In this document: positions 6,305 through 48,506 of the stretch, piece after piece | How the letters are laid out: each line of letters opens with the position of its first letter | Position numbering within the stretch: position 1 is the stretch's first letter | NCBI RefSeq assembly: GCF_009931435.1 | Contig: NZ_CP043414.1 | Origin: Escherichia coli | GTDB lineage: Bacteria > Pseudomonadota > Gammaproteobacteria > Enterobacterales > Enterobacteriaceae | Reading direction: 5' to 3' (one strand) | Length of the DNA stretch: 64,000 bases | Made by a program: the position numbers and the translations under genes | The notes under the pieces: generated by a model | The model's input: the letters and a program-made list of their open reading frames with translations, nothing else | Told to the model about the DNA's origin: nothing | Databases searched by the model: none

Positions 6305-7731
6305 CGTTTTCCCTTATAATTACAGACGCGCACTAGCTGTGCTGGGTTAGCAATAATCCAACATTTTAATCCTGATTATGTTTATAAAAGCGAACGTTTG
6401 CTTAATAACTAACGTAAGTGGACCAGTTCTTCTGAGTGAACTTAAATGGAGTAGCGATAGTTACTTATAATAACTTTGCCATACAAACGCCATGCTCTTG
6501 CATGCTATGTACCTTTATATATTTATCAATCTGATACGAATCTAATAATAACCCTCATCATTAATGCAACTAATCTTATCTATATATCATGTGATATGTT
6601 CTGTAACAAGTAAAATCAACATAAAAAATTCAGCAAAATTTAATATTCGTTCAACTAGCCGTCTCACATATGACATTATTAGTCAACTGCATTTGCCACA
6701 AAATGGCTATTTCATGGAACGCAGTAATTTCTTAGCGTCTATTATCATGCTAATTCTTAGGTCCCTAGCGATTATTCCTGCCTGGTTCGTCAGCTTACGC
6801 CATGAGATTGCTACATTCCTTTTTATCCTGGAGATATGGGGGAACGCAGGCGACGCTTTTTCATCTACATTCATTGGTAAATATGGCTTTGGTCACTACG
6901 TCTTAAACCTTCTTCAATCACAGCTATTCGCCGGGCGATACGGCAAACAAACTAAGTGAAGCATCATCCTGAAAACACCAATGCGTACTGAACATCAACA
7001 AGCCTCTCCTGATCGACTTCAGAAGTGACCAGTTACAAGCCACAAACCTAGAAACATATTTCATGATGAGAATTATGCTCAGCCTGATGGCGGGTAAACG
7101 CTTATTTTCACCACGCTCACTGAGTTAGCCAGCAAAGCGCCCCTTGTTTAGAGCGCAAATAAATAACATATAAAACAAATAGTTAATCAAATATCTTTGA
7201 TTTGTGAAGGCCATCATAAGTGTTCGTCTGACTTCACATGGCATCTTCTTCATAGAAAAATATAGACATATTTTGTGACACGAATTGCAAATCTGGTTTT
7301 GTTATATGGATTGTGTGATTTTTGATCTGGTATAACAGGTATAAAGGTGTACCGCAGTAGTCAATGAGACTGAGCATCTCGCAATCTATGACAAACATCA
7401 CTTCAGTCTGAAAGGAATATGAAAATGAGATCAACAGACACTCTATTTTATGACTCAGGATAAAATGGATTGAGTAAGTGATATAGCTTACGAACATTCA
7501 AATCAATTAAACATCAGAAGAGATTTTATACTCAGGTATTTAATCTGGTTCTCTGTTTATTTAAATAATGTGGAAGAGAATTTTCACAGGAGACCTTATA
7601 CAAAAAATATAAAATACAGCTACCCGTTACCAAAGACACTATAAGCCTGGCAAAAATATTACACAACATAAATGCTAATTGTTTATGCGGGCTTTGTATT
7701 GCTTTCTGTATCCTACAAATGAGTGAAATTT
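6305..7731. promoter_or_regulatory. Long AT-rich fimB-nanC divergent intergenic regulatory region
   Basis: About 1.4 kb of AT-rich non-coding sequence between divergently oriented fimB and nanC. In K-12 this region carries the NanR, NagC and IHF sites that control fimB. The two ORFs in the track here have no recognisable product. Confidence 0.6.
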
Positions 7732-8448
7732 ATGAAAAAGGCTAAAATACTTTCTGGCGTATTATTACTGTGCTTTTCGTCACCATTAATTTCTCAAGCT
7801 GCGACACTGGACATACGTGGTGGATATCGTAGTGGAAGCCACGCCTATGAGACTCGACTCAAAGTCAGTGAGGGATGGCAAAATGGATGGTGGGCAAGCA
7901 TGGAAAGTAATACCTGGAATACCATTCATGATAATAAAAAGGAAAATGCCGCACTCAATGATGTTCAGGTTGAAGTTAATTACGCGATTAAACTTGATGA
8001 TCAATGGACGGTGCGCCCGGGAATGTTAACGCATTTTAGCAGCAACGGCACACGCTACGGACCCTACGTAAAACTGTCCTGGGACGCGACAAAAGATCTT
8101 AATTTTGGCATTCGCTATCGTTACGACTGGAAAGCTTACCGACAACAAGACTTATCCGGTGATATGTCTCGTGATAACGTTCATCGTTGGGATGGATATG
8201 TCACTTACCATATTAATAGTGATTTCACCTTCGCATGGCAAACGACGCTATACAGCAAACAAAACGATTATCGCTATGCAAACCATAAGAAATGGGCGAC
8301 GGAAAATGCATTTGTTCTACAATACCATATGACGCCTGATATTACGCCATACATAGAATATGACTACCTTGACCGTCAGGGTGTTTATAACGGCAGAGAT
8401 AATTTATCAGAAAACAGTTATCGCATTGGTGTGTCATTTAAACTGTAG
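7732..8448 (+). CDS. nanC: N-acetylneuraminic-acid-inducible outer-membrane channel NanC
   Basis: 238-aa product from the ATG at 7732 (MKKAKILSGVLLLCFSSPLISQA...), a KdgM-family porin ending in F-K-L. Confidence 0.9.
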   Translation: MKKAKILSGVLLLCFSSPLISQAATLDIRGGYRSGSHAYETRLKVSEGWQNGWWASMESNTWNTIHDNKKENAALNDVQVEVNYAIKLDDQWTVRPGMLTHFSSNGTRYGPYVKLSWDATKDLNFGIRYRYDWKAYRQQDLSGDMSRDNVHRWDGYVTYHINSDFTFAWQTTLYSKQNDYRYANHKKWATENAFVLQYHMTPDITPYIEYDYLDRQGVYNGRDNLSENSYRIGVSFKL

Positions 8449-8467
8449 TAGACAGGAGACAGTCACA

Positions 8468-9574
8468 ATGAATAAAACAATAACGGCGCTTGCTATCATG
8501 ATGGCTTCATTTGCCGCAAACGCGTCTGTATTACCGCAAACTCCGGTGCCTTTTAAAAGTGGTACCGGAGCAATTGATAACGACACTGTCTACATTGGTT
8601 TAGGTAGCGCAGGTACAGCATGGTACAAGCTGGATACACAGGCCAAAGATAAAAAATGGATAGCGTTAGCTGCATTCCCTGGTGGACCGAGAGATCAAGC
8701 AACCTCTGCATTTATTGATGGCAATCTGTATGTGTTTGGCGGCATTGGCAAAAACAGCGAGGGCTTGACTCAGGTATTTAATGACGTACACAAATACAAC
8801 CCCAAAACCAATAGCTGGGTTAAATTGATGTCGCACGCACCGATGGGCATGGCGGGCCATGTGACTTTTGTACACAACGGCAAGGCTTATGTTACTGGCG
8901 GTGTTAACCAGAATATCTTCAATGGCTATTTTGAAGATCTCAACGAAGCTGGAAAAGATCCAACCGCTATAGAGAAAATCAACGCCCACTATTTTGACAA
9001 ACAAGCAGAAGATTATTTCTTCAATAAGTTTCTGTTGTCTTTTGATCCCTCAACACAGCAATGGAGTTACGCTGGCGAATCTCCCTGGTACGGGACGGCT
9101 GGTGCAGCGGTTGTGAATAAAGGCGATAAAACCTGGCTTATTAATGGTGAAGCCAAACCAGGACTACGAACGGATGCCGTATTTGAACTTGATTTCACCG
9201 GTAATAATTTAAAATGGAATAAACTTGCTCCCGTCTCATCACCAGATGGCGTCGCTGGCGGTTTTGCGGGGATAAGCAATGACTCACTTATATTTGCCGG
9301 GGGGGCCGGATTCAAGGGGTCGCGGGAAAATTATCAGAACGGTAAGAACTATGCGCATGAAGGCCTGAAAAAATCATATAGCGCTGATATTCATCTTTGG
9401 CATAACGGGAAATGGGATAAATCGGGCGAATTATCGCAAGGTCGGGCCTACGGAGTATCATTGCCCTGGAATAATAGTCTATTGATTATTGGCGGTGAAA
9501 CTGCAGGCGGCAAAGCGGTGACGGATTCAGTTTTGATCTCTGTGAAGGATAATAAAGTCACAGTACAAAACTAA
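8468..9574 (+). CDS. nanM: N-acetylneuraminate mutarotase NanM (Kelch-repeat protein)
   Basis: Internal start MNKTITALAIMMASFAANA (ATG at 8468) gives a signal peptide followed by Kelch beta-propeller repeats; lies directly downstream of nanC. Confidence 0.9.
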   Translation: MNKTITALAIMMASFAANASVLPQTPVPFKSGTGAIDNDTVYIGLGSAGTAWYKLDTQAKDKKWIALAAFPGGPRDQATSAFIDGNLYVFGGIGKNSEGLTQVFNDVHKYNPKTNSWVKLMSHAPMGMAGHVTFVHNGKAYVTGGVNQNIFNGYFEDLNEAGKDPTAIEKINAHYFDKQAEDYFFNKFLLSFDPSTQQWSYAGESPWYGTAGAAVVNKGDKTWLINGEAKPGLRTDAVFELDFTGNNLKWNKLAPVSSPDGVAGGFAGISNDSLIFAGGAGFKGSRENYQNGKNYAHEGLKKSYSADIHLWHNGKWDKSGELSQGRAYGVSLPWNNSLLIIGGETAGGKAVTDSVLISVKDNKVTVQN

Positions 9575-9638
9575 TGCTTCAGGGCCCCAGTAAAGGGGCT
9601 CTGCTATCAATTTGCCATTTCAATTACGCGAAAATTAT

Positions 9639-10619
9639 ATGAACGCAATAATATCGCCCGATTATTACTATGTTCTTACCGTTGCCGGTCAGTCTAATGC
9701 CATGGCGTATGGCGAAGGACTGCCATTACCGGACAGGGAAGATGCGCCTCATCCCAGGATTAAACAATTAGCGAGATTCGCGCATACGCATCCCGGAGGC
9801 CCCTCATGTCACTTTAACGACATTATTCCACTGACTCACTGCCCACACGATGTTCAGGATATGCAGGGTTATCACCATCCTCTGGCAACGAATCATCAAA
9901 CACAGTACGGCACCGTTGGCCAGGCACTGCATATTGCACGGAAATTACTGCCCTTTATTCCTGATAATGCAGGGGTTCTCATCGTTCCGTGTTGCCGTGG
10001 CGGATCGGCTTTTACCGCGGGCAGCGAAGGGACATATTCAGAACGGCACGGAGCCAGCCATGATGCTTGTCGTTGGGGAACGGATACTCCGCTATACCAG
10101 GATTTAGTCAGCAGAACGCGAGCCGCACTGGCAAAAAATCCGCAGAACAAATTCCTCGGCGTATGCTGGATGCAAGGCGAATTTGACCTAATGACCAGTG
10201 ACTACGCGTCACACCCTCAACACTTTAATCATATGGTTAAAGCCTTTCGTAGGGATCTAAAACAATACCATTCTCAGCTTAATAAAATTACTGACGCGCC
10301 GTGGTTTTGCGGCGATACCACCTGGTACTGGAAAGAAAATTTCCCTCATGCGTATGAAGCTATTTATGGCAATTATCAAAATAATGTTTTAGCCAATATT
10401 ATTTTCGTCGACTTCCAGCAACAAGGTGCAAGAGGACTGACGAACGCGCCTGATGAAGATCCAGACGATTTAAGCACGGGATATTTCGGTTCAGCGTACC
10501 GGTCAGCGGAGAACTGGACGACGTCACTGCGAAGCAGTCATTTCAGCTCAGCAGCCCGTCGGGGGATTATTTCTGACAGATTTGTAGAAGCAATTTTGCA
10601 GTTTTGGCGCGAAAGGTGA
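9639..10619 (+). CDS. nanS: 9-O-acetyl-N-acetylneuraminate esterase NanS
   Basis: 326-aa product from the ATG at 9639 (MNAIISPDYYYVLTVAGQSNAMAYGEG...), an SGNH-type esterase; completes the nanCMS operon. Confidence 0.88.
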   Translation: MNAIISPDYYYVLTVAGQSNAMAYGEGLPLPDREDAPHPRIKQLARFAHTHPGGPSCHFNDIIPLTHCPHDVQDMQGYHHPLATNHQTQYGTVGQALHIARKLLPFIPDNAGVLIVPCCRGGSAFTAGSEGTYSERHGASHDACRWGTDTPLYQDLVSRTRAALAKNPQNKFLGVCWMQGEFDLMTSDYASHPQHFNHMVKAFRRDLKQYHSQLNKITDAPWFCGDTTWYWKENFPHAYEAIYGNYQNNVLANIIFVDFQQQGARGLTNAPDEDPDDLSTGYFGSAYRSAENWTTSLRSSHFSSAARRGIISDRFVEAILQFWRER

Positions 10620-10689
10620 GCGTTCATTAATTTGATTTATTTGCATCCATCAACGCTTTTAACTGCTCCGGCGTGCGGCACTATAATGG

Positions 10690-11440
10690 TTTTCACAACA
10701 AGGAGCCATTTTCTTATACCACTTTCAGAGACCATCCGCTTATGCCACCGCCCTCTACGCAACTGTTTGCAGAGCACCTTCCCACCGAGTGGATACAGCA
10801 CCTCCTGACGCTTTCTGCTCATGCGACTATTTGTCGTCTTAACCTGAGCGCGGATGGCGAAGCGGGGATTAGCCTGCTGGCCCGCAGCGCTGTCACCCAG
10901 GAGCGCCAGCGCGTGGGGGCCCCCTGGTGGAATGGCTCTTCCGCCAGACCGCACAGACATGGGGCGCGGAACGTTACCTGAAGGATGACTGGCACGGCCT
11001 GCAACTTTTTGCCATTGATGGCGCACAGTTCAGGACACCTATGAACCTGAGTTGCGTGAATATTATGGCTCTGCCAACACATCCACTGAGCGGCAGAGCG
11101 CCTACCCGGTCATGCGTCTGGTGGCGTTAATGAATCTGGGAATCACATTCTGCTGAATGCCATGACCGCGGCCTACCGGCGGAGCGATACAGCGTGAGGC
11201 AACTAAAGCGGCGTCAGAAATCAGCTTTAAGTTCGCATTCCAGTTTATCGTGACAGAAATGATAGTGCAGGGAAATACGGCGTCACCAGGAACCATCCCG
11301 AAACGGCTGGAGCATCTGCGGGGTGCTCTGGAAGCGGTGTTCCCACGACTATCAAGGCCGAGGGCTGTTAAGGTATCAAAAACCCGTTATCCGGTGAAAC
11401 ACAGTGCTGCCCCGCTTAAGTGACGGCATTGTGTTTCTGA
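10690..11440 (+). mobile_element. IS4-family transposase remnant (frameshifted and internally deleted pseudogene)
   Basis: Three consecutive reading frames carry pieces resembling IS4 transposase (InsG-like): ...VTQERQRVGAPW, FRQTAQTWG...LQLFAIDGAQFRTP, AYPVMRLVALMNLGITFC, and a C-terminal ...RAVKVSKTRYPVKHSAAPLK. Frames are broken and no intact transposase or clear terminal inverted repeats were seen. Boundaries approximate. Confidence 0.55.
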
Positions 11441-11593
11441 CTGGCCTTAACTTTCCCTGAATCTCTGACGATCCTCACCATTGATATTTTCTTCATTCCT
11501 CACCAGAGAAATAAAAAATCACTATACTCATCAAAATATGATGATCACCTTTATTCAGGTGATCACCTTACTATTTTATACGGAAAATAAATC

Positions 11594-12244
11594 ATGAATA
11601 TCCGTCAATCATTACATGACCGAATCTATGCAGAATACCCTCAACAGGCTAAAGATATATTACTGTATTTCCCCACTTATGAAATTATGCCATCGACCAT
11701 AAAAATGGTTATGATTAATGAGGTGGTAGCTATAACACCGCAAGAAGATTTTTATACACCAGAGTCTGGTTATTTTACGACTGTCGCCCGACAGTTAGCG
11801 CTGGCTGGATTATCGGCAAGTAGTGGCGAAGTCTTACTCAACCATGGTATCTACCTGACCTCCGCACTGAAACTACCTAAAACACAGATCACAGCCACAC
11901 CCGCGGAGATCATTCTCTGGTCACCTATTGTAGAATGGGAGCTCGAACTCTTTGCCAATATAAAAGTTATTTTCGTTGGCGGCGATATCGCGCGAAAATG
12001 CCTTAACATCATCGCGAAAAAGCAAACACGTAAACATGCCATCCCTTCAACTCCGACGTACAAACTGATGAATAGCGAATTAGTCTGGAAAGGAATAAGC
12101 ATACTTCCTGGATATATTCTTACCGGAAAAAACCTGCTCATTGAAAAGTCAAAAATCGAAATGAATGTCGAGCAATTAAGAAAAGGAATTGCGATTTATC
12201 GCAATAGTAACAGTAACCATACGAATAATTCAGTTCATGAATAA
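11594..12244 (+). CDS. Hypothetical protein, low GC; possible uracil-DNA-glycosylase-superfamily fold
   Basis: 216-aa ORF in AT-rich DNA. Four short motifs occur in the order typical of UDG-like folds (VMINEVVAITPQED; GIYLTSALKLP; KVIFVGGDIARK; IPSTPTY). The match is weak and based on pattern only. Confidence 0.4.
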   Translation: MNIRQSLHDRIYAEYPQQAKDILLYFPTYEIMPSTIKMVMINEVVAITPQEDFYTPESGYFTTVARQLALAGLSASSGEVLLNHGIYLTSALKLPKTQITATPAEIILWSPIVEWELELFANIKVIFVGGDIARKCLNIIAKKQTRKHAIPSTPTYKLMNSELVWKGISILPGYILTGKNLLIEKSKIEMNVEQLRKGIAIYRNSNSNHTNNSVHE

Positions 12245-12715
12245 GAGATGAATCATTAATAACAAGAAATCACTGACAAACCACCTGTAAAAGGTCAATC
12301 ATTTTAGTTCAATTTCCTTTGTCATGATTATATTTTTATCGTCCTGACGATACTATTAACAATTACAATATTTATACCCTCCCCTGAACAAACAGAAAAG
12401 AACTCATACATTCGTTTATAATTCTGGTAATCCTGGCATCATACGTTTAAAATTTAAGGTGTTTGTTTTATAATCATGGTTCCAAAGACTATTGGTCACC
12501 AGAAAATGCCAGCCTTTTCGTGCCAGCTATATTTGTCCAGTGTGTTACCCCATCCAAAAATCATCCACATCCTGATGTTATGTTAGATATAGAGAAAACA
12601 GGTTGTACTGTGCAATATGCTAACCGCATAAGCGAATATAATTTCTAAGCTGATATTGTCTGGCTGTTGGGAGCTAAACAATATAAATATCGCCAGTTGC
12701 CAGAACGGTTATATA

Positions 12716-12741
12716 GACCAGGAGCGTTTCGGCTCCTGGTC
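12716..12741. terminator. 10-bp-stem hairpin between convergent genes (putative bidirectional terminator)
   Basis: GACCAGGAGC-gtttcg-GCTCCTGGTC perfect inverted repeat located 17 bp beyond the stop of the UvrD-like gene and between convergent ORFs; flanking T-runs are short. Confidence 0.4.
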
Positions 12742-12757
12742 TGTTTCGGACATATTA

Positions 12758-14872
12758 TTAATCAGCCACTAATAGCGGACTAGGGATACCAGATGATGAA
12801 ACAAACAGCCCTTTTACGGCACGGGTTGCAGCCACATGCAGTAACGCGCGCTCATTAAATAATGCATCACGCTGTTCAACGGGATCATCGGATGCTAATG
12901 CTTTTATTTCCGGCACAACGCCTTCGTTAATCCCCACCAGGAACACATACTGGAACTCAAGCCCTTTAATACGGTGCATCGTTGCAACTCGCACGCCTGG
13001 GCGTGCATCGCTGTCACCGCTATCATTGCCTAAATTAAATGTCTCAATTCCGGCGTCATTGAGTGCTGATGCGTAGCGGTCACAAGCATGTTTAGTACGC
13101 GCAGTAATGCAGATATCCTGAGAACGAACCTGATTCGCCAGCAATGCCTGAATTTGCTTGACGAGTGTTGCAGCCTCTTCTTTGAAATCTGCCGCATGCG
13201 TAATCATGGGCTTTTCCCCGTGCAGTAATGACAAATAATCATTACTGGTATCCGCTTCGCCATCGAGGTTATCAACCTTCACACCAGTTAACAGCCCAAC
13301 AGCAAATTGACGCGTCTCTTCTGTGGTCCGATAGTTAATCTTCAATTTTTTACTGCGACGACCACGGACGTTAATACCACACTGACCAAGAACGACCTTA
13401 TTGCGATAAATACGCTGATGCCCATCCCCGACAATAAACAGATCGTTGGGCGACTCGGGAACCAGGCTGCGAATAAGAGTAAATGCCGGGGCACCGATAT
13501 CTTGAGCTTCATCGACGACAATACTGCTATAAGGTAGTTGGACCTGCTTTTCTTTAAACAGAACAATAGCCTCATGCATGGCATCGCCCATTTCGCGCAG
13601 TTTGGCACGCGCCATTTGTGCTCTGAATTCTTCGAAAACTGGCCAGATTTTCGCCCGTTGAATACGGGATAACGCTGTACCACGTCCAACCCGGCTGACT
13701 TTGAGGTATTCCTCCCGGGTGTAAACCGCATTTGGCTGGACAACGCGTTGCCACTCTTCAGCATAGAAATTGTCAGGTAGCCCCAGTTCGGCAGGTGCCT
13801 GCTGCAAGGCATAGTTCCAGCATTTACGTCGCCCTTCATCGCTGTCGTATACCACGCGGAAATCATAACCGTGGCGTTTTAGTTGGTCGCTCATCCAGGC
13901 ATCAATGTTAACGACGTCAATACGCGCCATCTCTTCTCGCGTACACAACCGCTGGAGATTAGCGCGAATATCTGCCGCCAGGTTACGCGTAAAGGTCGTG
14001 AAAAGTACCTTCTTACCGGGTTTATCTACCAGACGCTGAGATAACCACCGCGCACGGTGCATTGCAACAACCGTTTTCCCTGTACCTGCACCGCCCAGTA
14101 CTCGTACCGGACCATTAGCGGGCGACTCCACCAGTTTTCGCTGGCTCGGGTGCAGAAATACACGCCATTTTTCTAAAGGCGCATTAAGCATCTGCAATAG
14201 TTCCTGTTCATTTTCAACGACATGGAAGCGACGTTTACTTCGTTCAATCGCCTCCATAAAGTCGTTGGTATCAACAGGCTCATCACGATGATCGTTAAAC
14301 TCTTCCAGCACTTCCTGGTAATCCAGCCCTTCTGCCAGCCAGTGCAGAGGTTCCCAGGCTTCTGCTGGCATTATGCTTTCAAGTTGATTAAGCCCGGCTT
14401 CATCGGTAAGCGCCATCACCTGATCAATAAAGACAGGCGGCACACCCAGGGCCAGAATCTGTTCCGCGCTGTAAGCTGCGAAGAGTTTCGGTTTATCAAC
14501 CACCGTTTCCGCTGCCGGTTTGATATAGCTAATATCAATGACCTGAATCGCGCCAGTAACCGGGTGAATCGAACAATCATGCCGCCGCGCCCAGTCATAT
14601 GCTTCGTCGTGTTTATCCACCCACATCAGCATATACAGAGCACCCTGTTCAGGTTTCAGAACAATGCCGCGATAAGTTTGATCGATTCGCACCGAATGGA
14701 CATTTTTACTGCGCGCATCGTGGATCTTTTCATAGTTAAGTCCATTACTGGTCGGGTCCTGACGGAATTTGGAGATGAATTCCTGCACCTTTTTTTGCTG
14801 TGCTTTTGGGATCCGCGCGAATGCGCCCAGAAAACCATCAGAAAGTGCCACCTTGGGCGTTTGCACCGTCAT
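12758..14872 (-). CDS. UvrD/Rep-like superfamily-1 helicase with an extra N-terminal domain of about 200 aa (last gene of the DISARM-like operon)
   Basis: SF1 helicase motifs in order: Walker A GGAGTGKTVVAMHRA, VVDEAQDIG (motif II), FIVGDGHQRIY (motif III), KINYRTTEE (motif IV), ATMHRIKGLEFQYVFLV (motifs V/VI). The N-terminal region (...NVHSVRIDQTYRGIVL...) is not helicase-like. Its start overlaps the stop of the upstream giant gene by 4 bp (ATGA-type coupling). Confidence 0.7.
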   Translation of the reverse strand: MTVQTPKVALSDGFLGAFARIPKAQQKKVQEFISKFRQDPTSNGLNYEKIHDARSKNVHSVRIDQTYRGIVLKPEQGALYMLMWVDKHDEAYDWARRHDCSIHPVTGAIQVIDISYIKPAAETVVDKPKLFAAYSAEQILALGVPPVFIDQVMALTDEAGLNQLESIMPAEAWEPLHWLAEGLDYQEVLEEFNDHRDEPVDTNDFMEAIERSKRRFHVVENEQELLQMLNAPLEKWRVFLHPSQRKLVESPANGPVRVLGGAGTGKTVVAMHRARWLSQRLVDKPGKKVLFTTFTRNLAADIRANLQRLCTREEMARIDVVNIDAWMSDQLKRHGYDFRVVYDSDEGRRKCWNYALQQAPAELGLPDNFYAEEWQRVVQPNAVYTREEYLKVSRVGRGTALSRIQRAKIWPVFEEFRAQMARAKLREMGDAMHEAIVLFKEKQVQLPYSSIVVDEAQDIGAPAFTLIRSLVPESPNDLFIVGDGHQRIYRNKVVLGQCGINVRGRRSKKLKINYRTTEETRQFAVGLLTGVKVDNLDGEADTSNDYLSLLHGEKPMITHAADFKEEAATLVKQIQALLANQVRSQDICITARTKHACDRYASALNDAGIETFNLGNDSGDSDARPGVRVATMHRIKGLEFQYVFLVGINEGVVPEIKALASDDPVEQRDALFNERALLHVAATRAVKGLFVSSSGIPSPLLVAD

Positions 14873-17800
14873 TTGTCACCTCCGGACAGATGTTGCAATG
14901 TATTTTCGTCAATTGGCCCGAATGCAACGTGCCAACCCCTGGTTGTGAATAATGGAATAAATTCTTGATTATCAATAATCAATGCCCATTTTTGTGATGG
15001 CCAGGCGAGATCGGCTTCCGCAATAATTTCACCTTCATCATTTTGCAATTCGTAGCCGAGAGTCGGCGCAGAGAGAGAATGAGACTGAAGCAACGCGATC
15101 TCTTCAGCGCTTAATAAGCCAAACTCAATAATCTCAGCCCAACTTTCATCAGTCTCTGGTACTGCCTCTGGCGTTGCCGTAACTTTAACGTCAACGCTTT
15201 CCTGCGGTAAATGTACGGCTTTACGGCTGGTAAAGGTCATATCCGGCAGGAACTGTAACAGGTTTACCAGTCGCCAGAAGCCATTGAGTCCCGCTTCATA
15301 ACCGTCATCCTGCGTATAGCGATCGTCAAAACAGATATGCAAACGCAGCCAGCTGCGCATTTGTGCGACACTGGTCGTCGGTTTAATGGCTTGTTGTGGC
15401 AACACCGAAGCCAGCTCAATAAATTGCTGCGATGAGTTACAGCTATCGAGTAAACCACCAAAGACAAACGGTTCGTCTGGCAAAAGCTCTGCTAGCCGCC
15501 AGTCTGGCGCGTTTTCCTGCATTTCATAGGCATACTTTTGTTTCGTTCCCGCGTCCTGTGACTTCTTCACATCCAACCACACCCAGGCATGTGCAGCAGC
15601 CATTTTCTGCCATAACTGCGTTCTTCCTCCCGGCTCGGCGAGATAATCCAGCAGCAGTGCAAAACTGTTGCGTTCCCGGAACGACGCTTCAAGGGCCGCA
15701 AAGTTGGTATCGTGAAACAGGTTATAAAACTTAGGCTGTTTCATATCCGGGTTATGCCCAAGCCCCAGGACATCCTGAACATGTTTAAGCCCAGGCTCTT
15801 TGAGATCGGCCCACGTGACTGTCCACACCCAGAAATTACCGCTATCCCGAATCGCCTGGCGTTTTTGCACATCCTCTGCGACGCTATTTTTGTGAAACGC
15901 AAAGCCATCAAGGAAAATAGCTACCGGTTTAATGGCATCAGACTGCATAAGCGGATATAGCACGTAATCCGGGCGACAAGGGATCCCCACAGCCTCTTTA
16001 GCGCCTAAATCCACCTGAGCTTTAAGATGCCAGCTCATCATCGGTTCGCTGCGGGTGTTAATAATCCACCCAGCGCCCTGATGCGCGTAACTGCGACTGA
16101 CAATCAGGTTTTTATTTTCTTGCAGGCAGCTAATAAACCGTTTTTCCAGCTCACTGCCCATCATGGCTTCGAGGGAAATGTTTTTGATGGAATCAATTAC
16201 CCGTATCGAATCTCTTGCCTGCAAAATTTTCGCCAGCAAGAGACGCGCCTGATCGCGGGAGACATACTTCATGCGCCCACGGTCACGGTAAGCGTAAACG
16301 CAACGATAACAACCATCTTTATGCGTATCATGGTTGCAACTGCATTCCACTATCGCCTGATAGGCCAGTTCAAGTAATTTCAGCAAATTGTCGGGAGTGC
16401 GCATCAGCTCTTTAAGAGAACCAGTCCCCCCCGGGACGGTATCGTAAATCACCAGATACTGCCGCCAGGATTCGCCTTCATTTTCCGGCTCGCGGTACAC
16501 AACGCCTTTCAGGTGATCGACATTCCCCTTGAAGTAATGTTTAAGGCCGAGCTGGATCGCCGCCCCAAGAGAAGCCTCCACGACACGGTCATTACTGTAA
16601 CTGCTTACCGGGAGCAGAATTCGCAACGCTTCTGACTCCAGCTGGCGATAGAGATAGAGATAATCTTCGAACTTCGCCTTTTCCGGTTCCGTGCGATATT
16701 TGCAGCTCAAATCATGACGTGGTTCATGATCGCGAGGACGCTGTACCATGCCGCACCCCAGGCAAACTTTAAACCCGGTTCGCTTCTTCGCTTCTCCGGC
16801 AATCATCAACTCATTGGCATCATCCGCCATTTTGCCGAAGTTGATATCCCGCAGGGTGACTTTGCTTAAAAATTCAAAACCAAACGGAACTTCGCCTTCC
16901 TCAATCGCGTATGCCGCCGATACATCTTCTTTTTCGAAACTAACCAATAGCTGACGCTGGAAGAAAGCAGGTTCACGGCTGTCGCTCTCGTCGCTGATCT
17001 GGCTATCACGTGCGCTGGCGCGGGCATACACCTGGCGAAGTTTCAGCAGCGTGGTTTTTTGTCCGGCGTCGGCCCACCCCGGTGTGCCACATTTCGGGCA
17101 ATATTTATGCTGGTCGCCCGTCTGGTCGATATTTTCGCTGTAGTTACAGTGGCTACAGATACGCCAGTTCTCCGGCTCAGAGACCTTCAGGTCTATCTGC
17201 TCAATTTCAACTTTATGCCCACCGGCATAGAAATTATTCAGCGGAGCCAGCTCAGCCAGCGCCGTTGATGCCGGGCGTTCATATTCGAAAGTGGTGTTTT
17301 GATATTCACGCGCTTCCCCGCCTTCTTTACGCCGCCAGAGCACAGAACGTAACGTAATACCGGCTTCCGGGAAGGCGTAGTTAGGCAGCAGACCTTCATC
17401 CGTGAGGAAATTCAGCGTCTGCTTATTGTTGATTTGATTGACTAGCGCCATCAGCGCCTGCCGTTCTGAAGTTAACTCGCGCATATCGCTGTCAAAGTTT
17501 TGATCGCGCGGCGCGTTCTCCAGCTTATCGATACTGCGCTTGAGTTTATCGATGCGTGAACGCAGAGATTTGCGATCTTCCACCAGCAGTTTTAACGCCT
17601 CTTCGATACGCTGCACCAGAGAGCGTTGTCCTGGCGCGCCCTGAAGATAAGACAACAACTGTTGGCGAGTTTCTGCGGCAAGATCGGGGAAGATCGCCGT
17701 AAATTGTGCAGCAATCTCCGCATGATGCTGTTCGATATATCTCAGTAAGTTATACGGAAAACCCGATTTACGCCCGAACTCCAGCTCATCCAGCATCTGT

Positions 17801-20800
17801 TTGACGTTTTTACAGATAGCGGATTCTGGTACACCGGTTTTCACCCAGTTATCCATACAAAAAGCTGCCAGCTGGCGTTCGAGAATAGCCGTTGCATTGA
17901 GGAAGACGCCAGGAGCCTGCACCTGGCCCTGCATCATCTCCAGCGGTTCTTCAAAGAAAAACTGATCGTGCGGGTTCCCTTCTGCCACGGTAATGTTTAA
18001 CGCGTTACCATCTTTACGACCGGCGCGACCAATACGCTGCAAGTAGTTGGCCTGAGCAGGTGGGACAGAACAGAGTAAAACGGTGGAAAGATCCCCAACG
18101 TCAATACCCATCTCCAGCGTCGGTGTTGCCGACAACAGGTTGATATTCCACGGTTGGTTGCCACGGTAGAACGATTTTTCGGTGGCTTCGCGATCTTCAC
18201 GGCTAAGCAGCCCCGTGTGTTCTGCGCCCTGCACGCGCGCGATGTCCATGTTCTCCCAACGCCAGGTCGCCATATTGTCGACTTCCTGGTAACGACCTTC
18301 ACAACGTAAAGAGAGACAAGGCGCATTACGCCACTGCCAGCCTTGATCGGCCGGAGCCCGGACAACCTCACGGCAACATGAGCAATTAAGCTGAACGACG
18401 TCACGGCTCACCACCAGCGCCGAAGGCACCAGTCCCCAGGCTTCACGCCCTTTGGTGTCAAAATCTTTTACTACTCCGGCTATTTTCAACGCCGTAAACA
18501 GGCGTCGTAACACTGTTTCCGCAACGCTACTGATAAACAGATTATTGCCGTTACTCAGCGTGCGATTGATCCAATGCTGATACCAACTGGGGTTAGACTT
18601 CGCGCCAATCAGGCGATGGAAACCATTAATTTTTTCAAACGACGCATAAGCCGGTTTACGCGTTTTCGGACCGATAGAAGGCATATAGCGCGATGTACGC
18701 TCTTTTTGCGTCATCATAAAGGTCGTGCCATCACGGCGATAACTTTCGAACGCCGGATGCATAACGGCCCCGGCCTGGCGTTGATACCAGATAACCCCCA
18801 GCGCCAGGTGCGCTACCTGCTCGACGCTCACACCGGACATCTCATCACCCAGCTCTTCACAAAGCTGTTGATGCAGGGCGGTAATTGCCGGATTAAAGCG
18901 TTCTTTATCCACTCCGGCAACGGCATAACCGGTGGCTTCCAGCGTACGTCCGATACGCGCGCGCAGGGTAAATTCGCTGTACACCTCCCAGTCGAGGCGC
19001 AGGGAAACCAGCTCCGGCAGATCGGAGTTCTCCGCCAGTTTGCCTTCATTTTTCAGTGTCTGATAATCATTCAGCCACTGCATATTTGGTGCGATGAAGT
19101 TCGCTGCAAAATGAGCATCGTCCGGTGAACGTTCACGCGTTTGTTGGCAAACACGCGCCGCGAACGCATCCAGCGGTAATGTCTCTTTTTCGCCAAGAAC
19201 ACTGGCGATTTGCCCACGAATCATCAGCGGCCAGGTTCGGGCAGTAAAAAAGCTGGCACGATGCGCGGCGTCTTGTACCGAGTCAGAAAACGTAATCAGC
19301 TTTTTATGTTCGTTGAACTGGCTGCCATAAAGCTGGTGAATCATCACCGCCGACAAACTGGCAGCCCGTGACCCCAGAATCGAAATCCCCTGTTTGCTGT
19401 TGCAGTACGGGCATTCATTAGCAAACTCCAGCTCGTCCTTACGCTCTTTGAGCATATCCGGGATCAGTACCTGCAACAGTTCCGTATGACCGCAATGTCC
19501 ACACTGGACGCTGGACTGTCGGTTCAGTTTCAGACAGGTAGGGCACAGTTTCTGGTGTGCGCCACTGACCGCTTTTTCGTTGTTATCCGGGAAAGCAAGG
19601 ACGATGGAGCGCCCTTTTTCAAAGAACTGGCGATAAATGCCGTCGAGGTCTGTTTCCAGCTGAACGCTTTGCCCATGACGCAGGCTGGCCCAGCCAGTTG
19701 CGTGGCAGTCACGGCAGTGGATAACCGGCAAATAGTGTTCGCGGTCTTCCACCGCCACATCATCGGCAAACACCAGTCTCGGCGTTTTCGCCACGCTGGC
19801 GACCAGACGACGCATCTCACGAAGCCACAACTGGGAGCGCAGTTGCACAAACGGCAGCACCGGGCGCGCTTTCTTCGCCTGGAGACGTTTTTGCCGATCG
19901 TGTTCCATTTCCGGTACTTCGAGACGTGCCTGTGCGATCAGCGCCAGAATGCTTTGCAGCACGCGTCGGGCATGGTCGGCGCTTTCTGCCAGCATAACCT
20001 GGAGATTTTCCAGACACTCTCGTTCAGAGAGGATCCCGCCTTGCAGATCATGGAGTAAGACATGCATCACGCTGTGGCGGCGTAACAGTGACCCCAGCGC
20101 AATACGCTTTTCACGCCCGTCGTCGCTCTCCAGATCGTCCGGGAGTTGCAAGTCGCTGTCGGGGAACCACAAAGGGATTTGCCCGTTAAGATACGCTACC
20201 GGGGTAGCGTAACTCTGCGGGTCCAGGGCCGAAGCGACCTCCTGCCCCGGATACTGACTGTACGCAATGGCGTAATCCTGCAAGTACTCCGCTGCCGTGT
20301 AGCGATCTTCGCGAATAACGGCGTCATCGGTAAACGGCTGGTCAAAGATTGTTTTTGCGTAATCGAGCAGTTGCCCCAGTTCGTCGCCGACGGTCGCTGA
20401 TGTCCCGACACAGGCGAATCGTTGGTTATCCACACCTATGTGATGCTTCAGACGTCGCACCAGACAGGCCAGATCCGACCCTTGCGCGCCATCAAACGTA
20501 TGCAATTCATCCACGACCAGGTAGCGCAATGAACCGGGCTGGTTGTAACGCCAGAGCGGCTGATCGCCAGGGCGCATCAGCAGGTAGTCGAGCATTTTGT
20601 AGTTGGTCAACAGGATGTCCGGCGGGCTTTCGCGCAGCGTGTGCTTGCAGGTAATGACCTTTTCTGCCGACATTTTTTTGCTGGGTTCGATTTCGCTGTC
20701 GCCGACAAACAGGCCGACGGTCACCTTGCCATGCAGTTGTGGATCGCTGGCGATGGTTTTGGCGAAACGGCTGGCCTGATCGGTTGCCAGGGCGTTCATC

Positions 20801-21210
20801 GGGTAGATGATAATCGCTTTAACCCCGGCTTGTGACGCGCCCGCGCAGTGGTTGAGCAGCGGGAACATAAAACATTCTGTTTTACCGGAGCCGGTACCGG
20901 TAGCGACCAGTGTCGGCTGTGGCGCGTCGCTTCCCAGACGCTGAAATGCCCGGGCCTGATGCGCGTGCGGCGGGAACGGCAGCGTCAGATTAGGGAAAAA
21001 ATTCAGCGGTAAGTCACTTTTACGAAACGGCAACTGGGCGGAAAGGTATGGTCCTTTCAGCAGCGTTTCCGGCTGGGCCAGAAATTGCTCCAGCATTGAG
21101 ACATTATCGTTATTCTCACCGTTAAACAGCGGGCTGTTTAGCGGGAACGCCGCCCGTAAAAAGGCGGCAACGCTGTCGGCGACCTGCCGACTGACAACGG
21201 ACGGCAACAT
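14869..21210 (-). CDS. Giant 2113-aa fusion protein: N-terminal DEAH-box SF2 helicase, DUF1998-type zinc ribbon, and a C-terminal restriction-endonuclease-like (Vsr/DUF559-like) module (DrmA+DrmB-like or DruE-like)
   Basis: Helicase motifs GTGSGKTECFMFPLL (I), VVDELHTFDGAQG (II), VGTSATV (III), QRIGRAGRKDG (VI). Cys clusters CSHCNYSE...YCPKCG and ECSCNHDTHKDGCYRCVYAY are typical of DUF1998. C-terminal segment RPDYVLYP...VAIFLDGFAFH...D..KRQAIRDSGNFWVW resembles a PD-(D/E)xK Vsr-like nuclease. Start overlaps the methyltransferase stop. Confidence 0.7.
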   Translation of the reverse strand: MLPSVVSRQVADSVAAFLRAAFPLNSPLFNGENNDNVSMLEQFLAQPETLLKGPYLSAQLPFRKSDLPLNFFPNLTLPFPPHAHQARAFQRLGSDAPQPTLVATGTGSGKTECFMFPLLNHCAGASQAGVKAIIIYPMNALATDQASRFAKTIASDPQLHGKVTVGLFVGDSEIEPSKKMSAEKVITCKHTLRESPPDILLTNYKMLDYLLMRPGDQPLWRYNQPGSLRYLVVDELHTFDGAQGSDLACLVRRLKHHIGVDNQRFACVGTSATVGDELGQLLDYAKTIFDQPFTDDAVIREDRYTAAEYLQDYAIAYSQYPGQEVASALDPQSYATPVAYLNGQIPLWFPDSDLQLPDDLESDDGREKRIALGSLLRRHSVMHVLLHDLQGGILSERECLENLQVMLAESADHARRVLQSILALIAQARLEVPEMEHDRQKRLQAKKARPVLPFVQLRSQLWLREMRRLVASVAKTPRLVFADDVAVEDREHYLPVIHCRDCHATGWASLRHGQSVQLETDLDGIYRQFFEKGRSIVLAFPDNNEKAVSGAHQKLCPTCLKLNRQSSVQCGHCGHTELLQVLIPDMLKERKDELEFANECPYCNSKQGISILGSRAASLSAVMIHQLYGSQFNEHKKLITFSDSVQDAAHRASFFTARTWPLMIRGQIASVLGEKETLPLDAFAARVCQQTRERSPDDAHFAANFIAPNMQWLNDYQTLKNEGKLAENSDLPELVSLRLDWEVYSEFTLRARIGRTLEATGYAVAGVDKERFNPAITALHQQLCEELGDEMSGVSVEQVAHLALGVIWYQRQAGAVMHPAFESYRRDGTTFMMTQKERTSRYMPSIGPKTRKPAYASFEKINGFHRLIGAKSNPSWYQHWINRTLSNGNNLFISSVAETVLRRLFTALKIAGVVKDFDTKGREAWGLVPSALVVSRDVVQLNCSCCREVVRAPADQGWQWRNAPCLSLRCEGRYQEVDNMATWRWENMDIARVQGAEHTGLLSREDREATEKSFYRGNQPWNINLLSATPTLEMGIDVGDLSTVLLCSVPPAQANYLQRIGRAGRKDGNALNITVAEGNPHDQFFFEEPLEMMQGQVQAPGVFLNATAILERQLAAFCMDNWVKTGVPESAICKNVKQMLDELEFGRKSGFPYNLLRYIEQHHAEIAAQFTAIFPDLAAETRQQLLSYLQGAPGQRSLVQRIEEALKLLVEDRKSLRSRIDKLKRSIDKLENAPRDQNFDSDMRELTSERQALMALVNQINNKQTLNFLTDEGLLPNYAFPEAGITLRSVLWRRKEGGEAREYQNTTFEYERPASTALAELAPLNNFYAGGHKVEIEQIDLKVSEPENWRICSHCNYSENIDQTGDQHKYCPKCGTPGWADAGQKTTLLKLRQVYARASARDSQISDESDSREPAFFQRQLLVSFEKEDVSAAYAIEEGEVPFGFEFLSKVTLRDINFGKMADDANELMIAGEAKKRTGFKVCLGCGMVQRPRDHEPRHDLSCKYRTEPEKAKFEDYLYLYRQLESEALRILLPVSSYSNDRVVEASLGAAIQLGLKHYFKGNVDHLKGVVYREPENEGESWRQYLVIYDTVPGGTGSLKELMRTPDNLLKLLELAYQAIVECSCNHDTHKDGCYRCVYAYRDRGRMKYVSRDQARLLLAKILQARDSIRVIDSIKNISLEAMMGSELEKRFISCLQENKNLIVSRSYAHQGAGWIINTRSEPMMSWHLKAQVDLGAKEAVGIPCRPDYVLYPLMQSDAIKPVAIFLDGFAFHKNSVAEDVQKRQAIRDSGNFWVWTVTWADLKEPGLKHVQDVLGLGHNPDMKQPKFYNLFHDTNFAALEASFRERNSFALLLDYLAEPGGRTQLWQKMAAAHAWVWLDVKKSQDAGTKQKYAYEMQENAPDWRLAELLPDEPFVFGGLLDSCNSSQQFIELASVLPQQAIKPTTSVAQMRSWLRLHICFDDRYTQDDGYEAGLNGFWRLVNLLQFLPDMTFTSRKAVHLPQESVDVKVTATPEAVPETDESWAEIIEFGLLSAEEIALLQSHSLSAPTLGYELQNDEGEIIAEADLAWPSQKWALIIDNQEFIPLFTTRGWHVAFGPIDENTLQHLSGGDK

Positions 21211-24200
21211 CAGGCGCTCTCCTTATCTTGTGCAAAGAACGCCCAGGCCACTTTGTAGTCGTCTTCGCGATCCGGCTTGATAAACGGTGCCTGCCAGGTG
21301 ACGGTACGGCGCTCGCCTTCGTCGCTGCGGGTATAGTCATCAAAGGTGACGCTGACGGTACCGGTTTGCAAATGTTTGACATCATCCCAACCGATGGCTT
21401 GATCGGTGCAGTCACCGCCGGTCCACTCCGGGCTGTCGACGTTAAAGACAAAGCCGTTTTTCAGGTCAGCTTTACGCGCGGTGCGAGGCAAGCCAACGCC
21501 CACCAACCCTTTGCTTGGGGTAAAGATGATGCGGCCGTTTTGGTCGTACCAGGTGTCCGCTTCGTACTGACGCATCACCGGGAACTGTACACGGTAAATG
21601 GTAAGCAGCTCTTCGAGGGTTAACCCCAGCGCCTGTGCCACCAGAACGTCGATTTCCACCAGCGCCTGACGACGACTGTAGTCGGAGCGTAAGGCACAGT
21701 TACGCTGCCACTCTGGGGTCAGATTGGCGAAGAAATCTTGTGGGAGCTGCGGGAGATCGCGGCTCCAGCGTTGGGTATTGAAGTCTGGGGTGTAGCAGGA
21801 TTGCCAAAGGCCAGCATATACATCATTTACAGAATTTAATGATAATACTAAGCAGTATAATAATGCCTTTTGTCTCGGATTGAATAATACGTATGAGAAA
21901 CCATCAAGCATCTGATGTAAGTTTGCCTTGCCAGTAGATTTACAAATAAAATCAAAAGGTAAAGAAAAACACATACCTGAATGTTCGAGTAACTGATTCT
22001 GTGAGCTATAGCAGTAAGAACGTACTGCGTTCATGTGACTTATTTCTGGCGGATAAATAGCACTAATTAGTGTACGTTCCCCCGATTGAGCCAACATGGC
22101 TCTGATAGCTAAGCGATAATAATCTGTTACCTTCTTCGGTTCATCTTCAGCCAGTTCAGTCCATGTAACGCATGGAGTACGTTTGGCATACTCCTGTGCA
22201 TCACAGGCTGGAATATAGTTAGTGCGCGGCAAATAGTCGTCGGGCAGAGTTAGCAAGTCTAGGTTATCGTATGCTTTATTCGTGTCACAAACCGCTCTAG
22301 GCGTATTGTAGAAAGGATTGCCAACAAAAAAATGAGGGCCAGACAAAACCCATTGTGATGCTTCTTCCGGGAACTGTGTATGTCGCTCAATTGTACCATC
22401 GCTTTGCTGATTAGTTTCATGCCACATTTCTAGAGAATAATATTGCCCCTGCAAATCACCTAATCGCCTAGGTTGTTTCGCAAACTTTTCAAGTACTGTA
22501 ACTAATTGTGTAGCATGCAACGCAGGAAGACGGGCTTCCTGGGCAGGAGTTCCGACAACATCATAAAGACGCGCAAAAAGACCCAACTGTTTTAAATTTA
22601 TAGGCACGACTCGATCGAAATGTCCCTGGAAATTCCATTTAACTTTTACTTTGCCATCGATTTCAGTTTCTTCTTTTATCCCCGGGACAATGCCTTCCCC
22701 TTTATGTTCAAAACACGCGTCAATAGTTTGAGGAATAAATAAATTTGCTATATTTGAGAATGCCACTATCTGAGAATAGGGGCCATATACATTGATGCTA
22801 AATCTAGTGTGATTATCTACTTCAGCAAATATTTTAACTTCATTGGCAAATTGAAAATGCGCCCTCAACCTCGGGTACACTGCCGCACGCAACTGCCCAC
22901 CTTTCGGGTCATCATAAATCCCTTCCGGGTGCAGGAAGCCTGCCACGCCTTTCTCTGCCCCTAAGCGCCATGCCTGCGGCAGGAAGCATTTATACAAGTT
23001 GGTCTGCACCCCGCGCAGTACCGGGTAGTTTTGCTGCGCATTGAGGAAGTTTTGCATCCCTTCACAGCCTTCATACTCGCTGCGCCAGGCCGCTTCCAGC
23101 GCTGGGATCTGGTTAAAGGTATCAACACGCAACGTTGCCAGCTTCGATGCACTCAGCTTACGCAGCACAAATTCCGGCTCGTAATCACCCAGCACGCCCG
23201 CTTCCTGCCATTCCACTTTTAGCCACGGCGGGTTTCCGAGCATCAGGTCAAAACCGCCGCGCTCGGCAAACAAGTCGCAGAACTCCAGATCCCAGTGGAA
23301 GAAACGGTGCTGCTTTCTCAGGGCATCGACAATCGCCAGACGCGGCAAATGGCGGAACAGCACATCGGTTTTCAGACGACCAGCAACGGAAAACAGCGAA
23401 GACTCTTCTCGCAGCAGGCCTTCTTCGGCAAACAGATCGCCAGTGGTGTGATCCGCAACTTCAGTGACTTTTTCCGTGATTACAATCCCGTCGAGCAGGG
23501 TTTCAATCTCAAACAACCAGGTACCGCGATCCGGTAGCTCATCAGCTTTGTCGATCGGCCAGAACCACAGCGCGCACCAGTAGTCCATCACCCAACGCAG
23601 CTTCTGGTAGGCGCTGTTATCTTCAAGACGACCGCTAAAGGTTTCATCTTTACTGCTCAGCGAAGAACGTGTCTGCTCGCTGTTTTCTGCCGGCCACACC
23701 GGGTAGCTGTCGGCGGTTTTCAGACGTTCTGCTTTAAGTTGCTGGCGATAGGTGTTCCACAGTGCTTCCACCTTTTCGCTGATACGCTGCACATCAGCAA
23801 TCTCATGCCCGGCAAAGCTTTTAATAAACTCTTTGCGCCAGCTGTCCAGCGCTTTGAAGTCATCCGGATAACGCTGCTTAACAGTTTTATCGCTGTAATT
23901 AGCCATACCGCCGTCGGGCAGCAGGAAGTGGAAAATCTGCGTCTCTTCACGCGGCGTGTTCATCGCCAGTTCGACCGGCTCGCTGTTAAGCCAGCTCGGA
24001 TCTTTGACTTTTTTGTAGGTCAGTTCGCTCTTGTTGAACACCTGACGGCGCGCGCCCACCAGCGAGTTACCGCAGTGCAGCTGGTAACCAAACCACGGTA
24101 CAAAGGCATCGCCACTGATGGCGTTCAGCCACAGTGACACTTCCGCCAGCTCCACCGCCACCGGGTTTAAGTCCACGCCGAAAACGTTGTTGTCGGCAAT

Positions 24201-40766: not shown

Positions 40767-40772
40767 TCGATC

Positions 40773-41480
40773 ATGGATAAGATTATAGGGAAACAATTAC
40801 CTAAAAAAGATCAAGATAATGAACACTGGGTATCCATGTCAGACCTAATGGCAGGGCTGATGATGGTTTTTATGTTCATATCTATTGCTTATATGCACTA
40901 CGTACGTATTGAAAAAGAAAAAATTAAAGAAGTTGCCGTAGCCTACGAGAATGCTCAGTTACAGCTTTATAATGCTCTGGATATTGAGTTTGCAAAGGAT
41001 TTACAAGACTGGGATGCAGAGATCGATAAACAGACTCTGGAGGTTCGATTTAAATCACCGGATGTTTTATTTGGCTTAGGAAGCACAGAGCTAAAACCAA
41101 AGTTTAAACTCATTCTTGACGACTTCTTTCCTCGCTACCTAAAAGTTCTAGATAATTATCAGGACCATATTACTGAAGTCCGCATTGAAGGTCACACAAG
41201 TACTGACTGGACAGGAACAACGAATCCTGATATTGCTTATTTTAATAATATGGCACTATCACAAGGTCGTACACGTGCAGTATTACAATACGTTTATGAC
41301 ATAAAAAATATCGCGACACACCAACAATGGGTTAAAAGTAAATTTGCCGCAGTAGGTTATTCATCTGCACATCCCATTCTTGATAAAACCGGCAAGGAGG
41401 ATCCTAATCGCTCTCGTCGTGTCACCTTCAAAGTTGTAACAAATGCCGAATTGCAGATTAGAAAGATTATTCAGGAGTAA
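40773..41480 (+). CDS. zorB: ZorB-like MotB/OmpA-family peptidoglycan-binding protein (Zorya)
   Basis: Single N-terminal transmembrane helix carrying an Asp (SMSDLMAGLMMVFMFISIAY), with a C-terminal OmpA-like motif (NMALSQGRTRAVLQYV...SRRVTF). Separated from zorA by 6 bp. Confidence 0.65.
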   Translation: MDKIIGKQLPKKDQDNEHWVSMSDLMAGLMMVFMFISIAYMHYVRIEKEKIKEVAVAYENAQLQLYNALDIEFAKDLQDWDAEIDKQTLEVRFKSPDVLFGLGSTELKPKFKLILDDFFPRYLKVLDNYQDHITEVRIEGHTSTDWTGTTNPDIAYFNNMALSQGRTRAVLQYVYDIKNIATHQQWVKSKFAAVGYSSAHPILDKTGKEDPNRSRRVTFKVVTNAELQIRKIIQE

Positions 41481-41483
41481 GAG

Positions 41484-42587: not shown

Positions 42588-42796
42588 ATTCCGAAACTCC
42601 GTGAAAGTTAAGACTTTCACGGAAGATAAATAAAATTCTCCTGATTTGTGACTCAAATTATAAAAGTCGTTTATGGCATAACTTGTCTGTTTTTTTGGTG
42701 TAATAGGTATAAAGGCATATGCTATGGTTAGCCTTATATTTAAAACTTTCCTCATACGGGTGAAGGTTAAAGCTTGGTAGATAGGTTACAGTCACA

Positions 42797-43406: not shown

Positions 43407-43413
43407 GCGTTCA

Positions 43414-44064: not shown

Positions 44065-44143
44065 GGAGAATGTCCTTATACGTTCTCAGAACAGGCAGCA
44101 AAAAAACAAATGAGATCAAGGTAATATATCTTCACTTGCAGGC

Positions 44144-48421: not shown

Positions 48422-48506
48422 TGGTGCCGAAGGCCGGACTCGAACCGGCACGTATTTCTACGGTTGATTTTGAATCAACTGCGTCTACCGATTTCGCCAC
48501 TTCGGC
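48422..48506 (-). tRNA. leuX: tRNA-Leu (anticodon CAA), leuX
   Basis: The minus-strand sequence GCCGAAGTGGCGAAATCGGTAGACGCAGTTGATTCAAAATCAACCGTAGAAATACGTGCCGGTTCGAGTCCGGCCTTCGGCACCA forms the acceptor stem, carries a CAA anticodon in a TTCAAAA loop, has a long variable arm and ends in CCA. Confidence 0.95.

Follow-up and report, generated by a model that had tools for sequence, protein, structure and literature searches.

The window, by which we mean the whole 64,000-nucleotide stretch of Escherichia coli DNA analysed here, carries fimE and fimB, then nanC (7723-8448), nanM and nanS, followed by a block of about 32 kb and a partial copy of the nan genes. To the right of the partial copy there is an HNH gene, a second HNH-type restriction gene and then tRNA-Leu(CAA) (leuX) at 48422-48506, beyond which ahr, the idn genes, lptGF, pepA, holC and valS are found. 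The block between the two nan regions is a defence island according to its PADLOC profiles, and the PGAP names at near-identical loci agree. From these predicted products it is an anti-phage defence island with Druantia-III-like, type IIG restriction-modification and Zorya II genes, and its left edge is formed by the broken remains of an insertion sequence (IS), with which this report is mainly concerned. The island genes that the argument needs are these:

11594-12244, plus strand: UDG-like open reading frame of 216 aa, directly right of the IS remnant (PGAP, 'uracil-DNA glycosylase family protein')
12758-14872: UvrD/GajB-like helicase (PADLOC)
14869-21210: DruE3-like helicase, 2113 aa (PADLOC)
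21210-26144: type IIG restriction-methylase, 1644 aa (PADLOC)
26147-29005: DrmD-like SNF2 protein, 952 aa (PADLOC)
39114-42587: Zorya type II genes zorA, zorB and zorE (PADLOC)

The island also encodes a 2107-aa DEAD/DEAH helicase and a 1119-aa protein of the STY4851/ECs_5259 family. We found no publication that combines Zorya, Druantia and nanS or leuX.

The UDG-like protein has only sub-threshold similarity to known glycosylases (Pfam PF03167, 18.1 bits, where the cut-off is 24.3; PDB 2d3y, E 0.18). It gave no PADLOC and no NCBIfam match, and no relatives emerged from a peptide scan that covered 100,044 species by representative genomes. The gene is missing in the O55:H7/O157:H7 allele of the island, where 11601-12247 is deleted. 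Its product might be a candidate for a defence-associated glycosylase. At 11540-11567, 27 bp upstream of its start codon, there is a near-perfect inverted repeat with an 11-bp stem, GATGATCACCTTTATTCAGGTGATCACC; it received a terminator-like score on either strand and might be a candidate operator.

Further to the right, a gene of 421 aa that is intact in Escherichia sp. E1V33 (L012 10225-11490) is represented by its 3' end, 12473-12648, within a 61-aa ORF at 12463-12648; the gene shows a weak, sub-threshold similarity to the metallo-beta-lactamase fold (Lactamase_B, E 0.0023). The UvrD/DruE block is found in E1V33 too, where it adjoins uxuA-uxuB-uxuR and not nanS. A search for an 'empty site', or for an IS still intact beside the UDG-like gene, in which representative genomes were scanned with the UvrD protein, gave 14 loci; none of them has the IS or the UDG-like gene close by, save for a degenerate UDG-like trace in E1V33. 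Since the UvrD relatives of other genera have no IS remnant nearby, the IS is not an intrinsic part of the island there.

The IS remnant between nanS and the island

The plus-strand segment 10674-11431 represents 758 bp out of a 1430-bp insertion sequence of the IS4 family, IS4 subgroup. The preliminary description had reported a decayed IS4-type transposase in three frames, and this is borne out by tblastn pieces in all three plus frames; the limits it gave, 10690-11440, have to be replaced by the exact ones above. When the intact 445-aa transposase of the plasmid pCPWW7-IncF (L002 2776-4110) was compared with the region by tblastn, residues 10-195 and 357-445 were matched with a summed E of 9e-65. 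The Pfam profile Nterm_IS4 matches a 102-aa ORF at 10673-10978 (E 1.5e-5; 25.6 bits, just above the cut-off of 25), and in a genome that is 99.5% identical over 10600-11600 the equivalent of 10742-11423 is labelled 'transposase, frameshifted' by PGAP. The GC content is 0.60 within the remnant against 0.43-0.48 in its flanks. We mapped the remnant to IS positions 42-1430 by a global block alignment and a four-way MAFFT alignment, with the intact IS on pCPWW7-IncF (L002 2693-4122) as the reference, and the blastn blocks between the two are 80-95% identical. All of this makes it very probable that 10674-11431 is a dead IS4-family remnant of the IS4 subgroup, from the same lineage as insZ/ISZ' of K-12 and the intact 1430-bp element. 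The locus is already known, as a broken transposase gene annotated in hundreds of genomes, and it is not a new kind of element. The features from nanS to the right flank of the remnant are:

9612-10619, plus strand: nanS, encoding sialate O-acetylesterase; no core gene lies between it and the junction (ORF; PGAP)
10627-10673, minus strand: 3' tail of an HNH endonuclease gene, 47 nt (last 15 codons and stop), cut off at 10673
10716-10718, plus strand: former transposase start codon, ATG changed to ATA (four-way alignment), followed by a 19-bp deletion, IS 91-109
10724-11191, plus strand: transposase residues 10-195, with 45-73 deleted, in four frame segments (tblastn, alignment)
11185-11204, plus strand: position of the large deletions inside the element (IS 663-1150 and 1169-1189), with residues about 196-356 gone
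11187-11420, plus strand: transposase C-terminus, residues 357-445, with gaps of 7 and 4 residues (tblastn)
11415-11431, plus strand: right inverted repeat, kept as CTTAAGTG-ACGGCATTG with a 1-bp deletion, against CTTAAGTGAACGGCATTG in the intact right repeat
11432-11442: right flank, the would-be copy of a target-site duplication, TGTTTCTGACT, 11 bp; the left copy is absent

Almost every part of the element is damaged. IS positions 1-41 are absent, the left inverted repeat included, and in addition to the two large deletions and the loss of IS 91-109 there are deletions of about 215-302 and of 1328-1339, so that the internal loss comes to about 620 bp in total; single base pairs are deleted at IS 396, 516, 619 and 1421. 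Within 10724-11191 the frame switches at 1-bp deletions near 10921, 11040 and 11142. This segment holds part of the Nterm_IS4 domain and the region of the first catalytic D (FAIDG). The second catalytic D and the E/YREK region (Y-2-R-3-E-6-K) went with residues 196-356 or thereabouts, and with them two of the three catalytic residues. The loss of the start codon, the catalytic deletions and the frameshifts mean that the remnant is unable to encode a transposase, and with a single remaining end it is not movable by a transposase acting in trans. Judged from its sequence, the remnant is immobile and without a conserved reading frame.

The preliminary description had proposed a search for terminal repeats and target duplications at both ends. 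At the right end the repeat was found, while the left repeat (up to three mismatches) is absent anywhere in the window, and so is a duplication: with one mismatch allowed, the sole second match to TGTTTCTGACT in the window lies at 47066, which is chance level, and there is none at the left end.

The left junction, its spread and its age

From nanC through nanM and nanS up to 10622 the window is 97.6% identical to K-12. The 47-nt tail that follows is identical or nearly so to the 3' ends of the HNH genes at 43414-44064 and in strain N17, and at 10674 homology to the IS begins, at IS position 42. When the window is compared with itself, 10490-10673 aligns to 43289-43460 with 85% identity, and the alignment ends at 10673. 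Both copies share ...TTAACTGCTCCGGCG, after which the right copy continues into the body of the HNH gene and the left copy into TGCGGCACTATAA, that is, IS position 42 onward. The microhomology at the joint is 0-1 nt. It had been claimed beforehand that the remnant adjoins the sequence after nanS at the point where the homology of the right-hand copy ends, and this holds to the base, at 10673|10674. A sigma-70-like match on the plus strand (10659-10687; TTAACT, 17 nt, TATAAT, 10/12) straddles the joint of HNH tail and IS, and its -10 element reads TATAAT in the window versus TATAAC in the intact IS and in O55:H7.

An IS homology that starts exactly where the HNH homology ends is what one would expect if the IS had jumped into the HNH gene and 10673|10674 were the original insertion point. 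This is next to impossible, and we regard it as refuted by the missing left end, because the first 41 bp with the 18-bp left repeat are absent; moreover, there is no duplication of 10-13 bp, and what follows the IS on its right bears no relation to the HNH gene. With IS 1-41 and the left repeat missing, no duplication and a microhomology of 0-1 nt, the joint is a truncation and not a transposition junction. We interpret the left junction as a deletion or an illegitimate joint. The earlier suggestion that 'an IS insertion or deletion' formed the junction is thereby narrowed: deletion or illegitimate joining is favoured, and a simple transposition junction is excluded.

A probe of 200 bp centred on the junction was covered to at least 80% in 444 of the 5426 complete E. 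coli genomes, among them O157:H7 and O55:H7. The remnant is present to at least 80% in 509 of these genomes and the UvrD gene of the island in 533. The junction is absent from the plasmid collection, whose matches are all either intact copies of the IS or nan segments of chromosomes that were misassigned. In strain CUPS05 there is a further deletion of about 226 bp, from the end of nanS to 10845. The allele of O55:H7/O157:H7 is about 93% identical to the remnant of the window, and the window and O55:H7 have in common the left truncation, the deletions of IS 91-109, 215-302, 663-1150 and 1169-1189 and the 1-bp deletion at 619. A truncation and lesions that are shared in this way indicate that the joint and the main inactivating lesions arose once, before the island alleles diverged. 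Private indels occur in each of the two alleles, and no ORF is conserved between them, which argues against a domestication of the remnant.

Between the window and O55:H7 (L004 4975-5747) there are 7, 8 and 20 substitutions at the former codon positions 1, 2 and 3, for which we estimate p at about 0.01 by chi-square; 25 derived changes fall in the window allele versus 9 in that of O55:H7. The third-position excess is not explained by GC3, the GC content at positions 1-3 being 0.62, 0.48 and 0.60. Such an enrichment is not predicted by pure neutral decay after a shared inactivation, and could be due to gene conversion from active copies, or to chance. It is also one of the points that can be raised for the remnant having been domesticated, with an N-terminal fragment (ORF 10673-10981) or a promoter being kept, for example to drive the UDG-like gene; the other points are the retention of the remnant in more than 440 genomes and the promoter-like match that spans the junction. 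We nevertheless find domestication very hard to believe. The start codon is lost, and a 2-bp insertion and other private indels in O55:H7 break the ORFs of the window. O55:H7 and O157:H7 keep the remnant although they are without the UDG-like gene. Promoter and terminator scans did not rise above chance (2 promoter-like matches were found, against a shuffled expectation of 1.3), and Rfam gave no match in 10000-13000.

The duplicated nan unit and the origin of the junction

At the other end of the island the nan sequences return, followed by the HNH gene:

42777-43413, plus strand: right pseudo-copy, the 5' part of nanM fused to the 3' end of nanS (self-comparison)
43414-44064, minus strand: complete HNH endonuclease gene (Pfam HNH), with 98.6% identity to its counterpart in strain N17

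The preliminary description had called the right-hand copy nanS'-HNH. The nanS part and the HNH gene stand, but the copy is actually a nanM' (42777-43292) fused to the nanS 3' end, followed by the complete HNH gene. The segment 42777-43292 matches 8448-8962 at 93.8% and the nanS 3' part matches 10490-10626, and the homology starts directly past the stop codon of nanC (8448/42777). A 2.2-kb unit of nanM, nanS and the HNH tail, which ends at 10673, thus flanks the island exactly on both sides, as direct copies that have diverged. Against all alleles checked, the right copy has about 94% identity in nanM and about 84% in the 3' end of nanS. Its internal deletions differ between lineages: in the window it is without 8963-10489, while in O55:H7 and ATCC 8739 it is without 8484-8820 and keeps 8821-9065. 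As the latter two retain 8821-9065, the ancestral right copy was longer. The right copy is, by these comparisons, a decaying pseudo-copy of which different lineages have lost different parts.

In island-free strains, e.g. N17, the order is nanC, nanM, nanS, HNH and then a restriction endonuclease that binds phosphorothioate DNA, and a query of the nanS 3' end plus HNH was covered to at least 80% in 1234 genomes. The pair of the HNH gene and the phosphorothioated-DNA-binding restriction endonuclease, at 43414-45073 in the window, is widespread in E. coli after nanS. In K-12 the HNH gene was lost almost entirely in a separate event; what remains of the pair (L011 41269-41626) is a 5' stub of HNH and a 5' fragment of the second gene, before yjhR. 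We also considered yjhR of K-12 as a remnant of the UvrD gene of the island and rejected this, as there is no blastn similarity.

How the joint and the two nan copies came about can be accounted for in more than one way. The nan duplication may go back to an in-situ deletion, to a long target duplication at an illegitimate insertion, or to a capture of the Campbell type, and the IS4 remnant may be the cause of the island junction or a scar that was caught in it, both being compatible with the data. The in-situ deletion has a reasonable claim, if somewhat short of an even chance. A complete IS would then have stood to the right of a full HNH gene, and an adjacent deletion would have taken most of HNH, the DNA in between and IS 1-41, with the IS as a bystander that happened to hold one of the deletion endpoints. 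A truncated IS and a truncated HNH gene joined with 0-1 nt of microhomology would be the natural outcome, and similar losses have occurred at this very spot, of about 226 bp in CUPS05, of almost the whole HNH gene in K-12 and of the UDG-like gene in O55:H7. The pre-deletion state, however, was found in 0 of the 5426 E. coli genomes, and such a deletion leaves unexplained why there are two copies of the nanM-nanS-HNH-tail unit and why the segment they share ends exactly at the junction.

In a second reading, the joints 10673|10674 and 42776|42777 would be the two limits of a 2.2-kb stretch of nan sequence which came in with the island DNA, for example on a circular molecule. Homologous recombination of the Campbell type between this stretch and the nan genes already in place would have left two direct copies. 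The IS would then have arrived already truncated. We look upon this as a tentative possibility. The limits of the duplicated unit are sharp: it begins at the base following the stop codon of nanC (8448/42777) and ends at 10673, and the island fits exactly in between. The right copy is unlike all E. coli alleles examined, with an adjacent HNH gene that is 98.6% identical to that of N17, which would fit a foreign origin for one of the copies. The right copy is a pseudogene, however, and its divergence may be largely neutral; the right copies of the window and of O55:H7 differ from each other by about 3.5%. No circular or plasmid form with the joint was found, and the outcome would look identical if an illegitimate insertion had been staggered and had duplicated a long target.

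Strain ATCC 8739 has a bearing on the same question. Its island (NZ_CP022959.1, about 4.239-4.273 Mb) lies within a tRNA-Phe integrase island and has a nanM' fragment after zorE, which shows that it moved there from the nan locus; that the fragment came along agrees with a capture joint. The island is bracketed there by IS1 copies, the left of which cuts the UDG-like gene, and this looks like an IS1-mediated relocation. One could go further and propose that the whole Druantia/Zorya island entered by Campbell-type recombination through nan homology, without an integrase, so that the IS would mark the closure of the carrier. We consider this improbable. If true, the island might still be exchanged between strains through nan homology.

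Whichever of the two routes applies, a break and a joining at IS position 42 would be at the centre of it. A complete IS would once have adjoined its present right-hand neighbour, the island DNA with the UDG-like gene. IS position 42 would have become fused to the HNH tail afterwards, by breakage and rejoining other than transposition, either through a deletion with one end within the HNH gene and the other in the IS or through illegitimate joining during the capture of the island DNA. This single event would precede the split of the window-type and the O157:H7/O55:H7-type island alleles, and the remnant would have been drifting since then with no reading frame conserved. As the intermediate state (an intact IS at this place, or an IS with the full HNH gene on its left) was not found in the genomes examined, the order of events is one that we infer.

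An identical joint in 444 genomes, of lineages as distant from each other as O157:H7 and the strain of the window, shows the nan-locus island to have a single origin, in one ancient event of capture. Decayed IS copies at island edges are commonplace in themselves, and the value of this one is mainly that of a precise boundary marker; the left boundary base, 10673|10674, is usable for typing the presence or absence of the island.

The intact element and its relatives

Members of the IS4 subgroup have a single-ORF DDE transposase without programmed frameshift, with a Y-(2)-R-(3)-E-(6)-K signature and a DDE triad (PMC2266710), an inverted repeat consensus of -AATR--------WTW----, a target duplication of 10-13 bp and a size of 1400-1650 bp (PMC2266710, Table 1). 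The intact relative agrees with the IS4-subgroup row of that table in its size and ends, in the length of its duplication and in the YREK motif. Its 1430 bp are bounded by inverted repeats of 18 bp, CAATGCCGATCAGTTAAG/CTTAAGTGAACGGCATTG, and in the pCPWW7-IncF copy there is a target duplication of 11 bp, TTCAGTTCGGG; the element's ends, CAATGCCGATCAGTTAAGGA, fit the consensus, and further intact copies end at identical positions. The transposase, WP_029488891.1, has 445 aa and the YREK signature YHSRWEIEVGFRNLK. It scores 106.5 bits with Nterm_IS4 and 79.5 bits with DDE_Tnp_1 (Pfam), and 263 bits with NCBIfam NF033592, 'IS4 family transposase', for which the cut-off is 115. According to a megablast survey, intact copies, annotated as 'IS4 family transposase', occur on plasmids of E. 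coli, Salmonella and Klebsiella and in some chromosomes, that of ATCC 8739 among them. No link of the remnant's element to ISEc14 or ISEc17 was established.

Measured against the same definition, the remnant belongs with the DDE transposases by its IS4-family profile match, its own ORF in the window being broken, a pseudogene. It has 758 bp versus the 1430 bp of the intact relative. The YREK motif and a complete DDE triad are gone with the deletion of residues about 196-356; the right repeat is kept with its 1-bp deletion and the left one is absent, and as the left end is truncated no target duplication could have survived. The intact 1430-bp element has the same right end as the remnant and is 80-95% identical to it in the retained blocks, which makes it the best available model of the ancestor. 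It possesses both repeats, the duplication and a full transposase, whereas the remnant keeps 53% of the length and, as far as its remaining parts tell, no activity.

The family prototype, IS4 (insG) of K-12, is of almost the same size (1426 versus 1430 bp) and likewise belongs to the IS4 subgroup. The first 35 bp of K-12 IS4 and of the intact relative are 97% identical, but past this left tip there is no nucleotide similarity, and the transposases are 38.7% identical, which makes them different IS species. Much closer is the element of K-12 that has been named ISZ'/insZ (PMC3032704, Table 3), situated between adhE and tdk, with about 93% nucleotide identity to the remnant over 10835-11190. Like the remnant, insZ is a frameshifted and internally deleted transposase pseudogene. 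Unlike the remnant, it has both inverted repeats and a duplication of 10-11 bp, and its deletions are others (IS 263-279, 435 and 815-1232). By this comparison insZ goes back to an insertion of its own, at another locus, by a member of the same IS lineage, and shows what such an insertion normally looks like.
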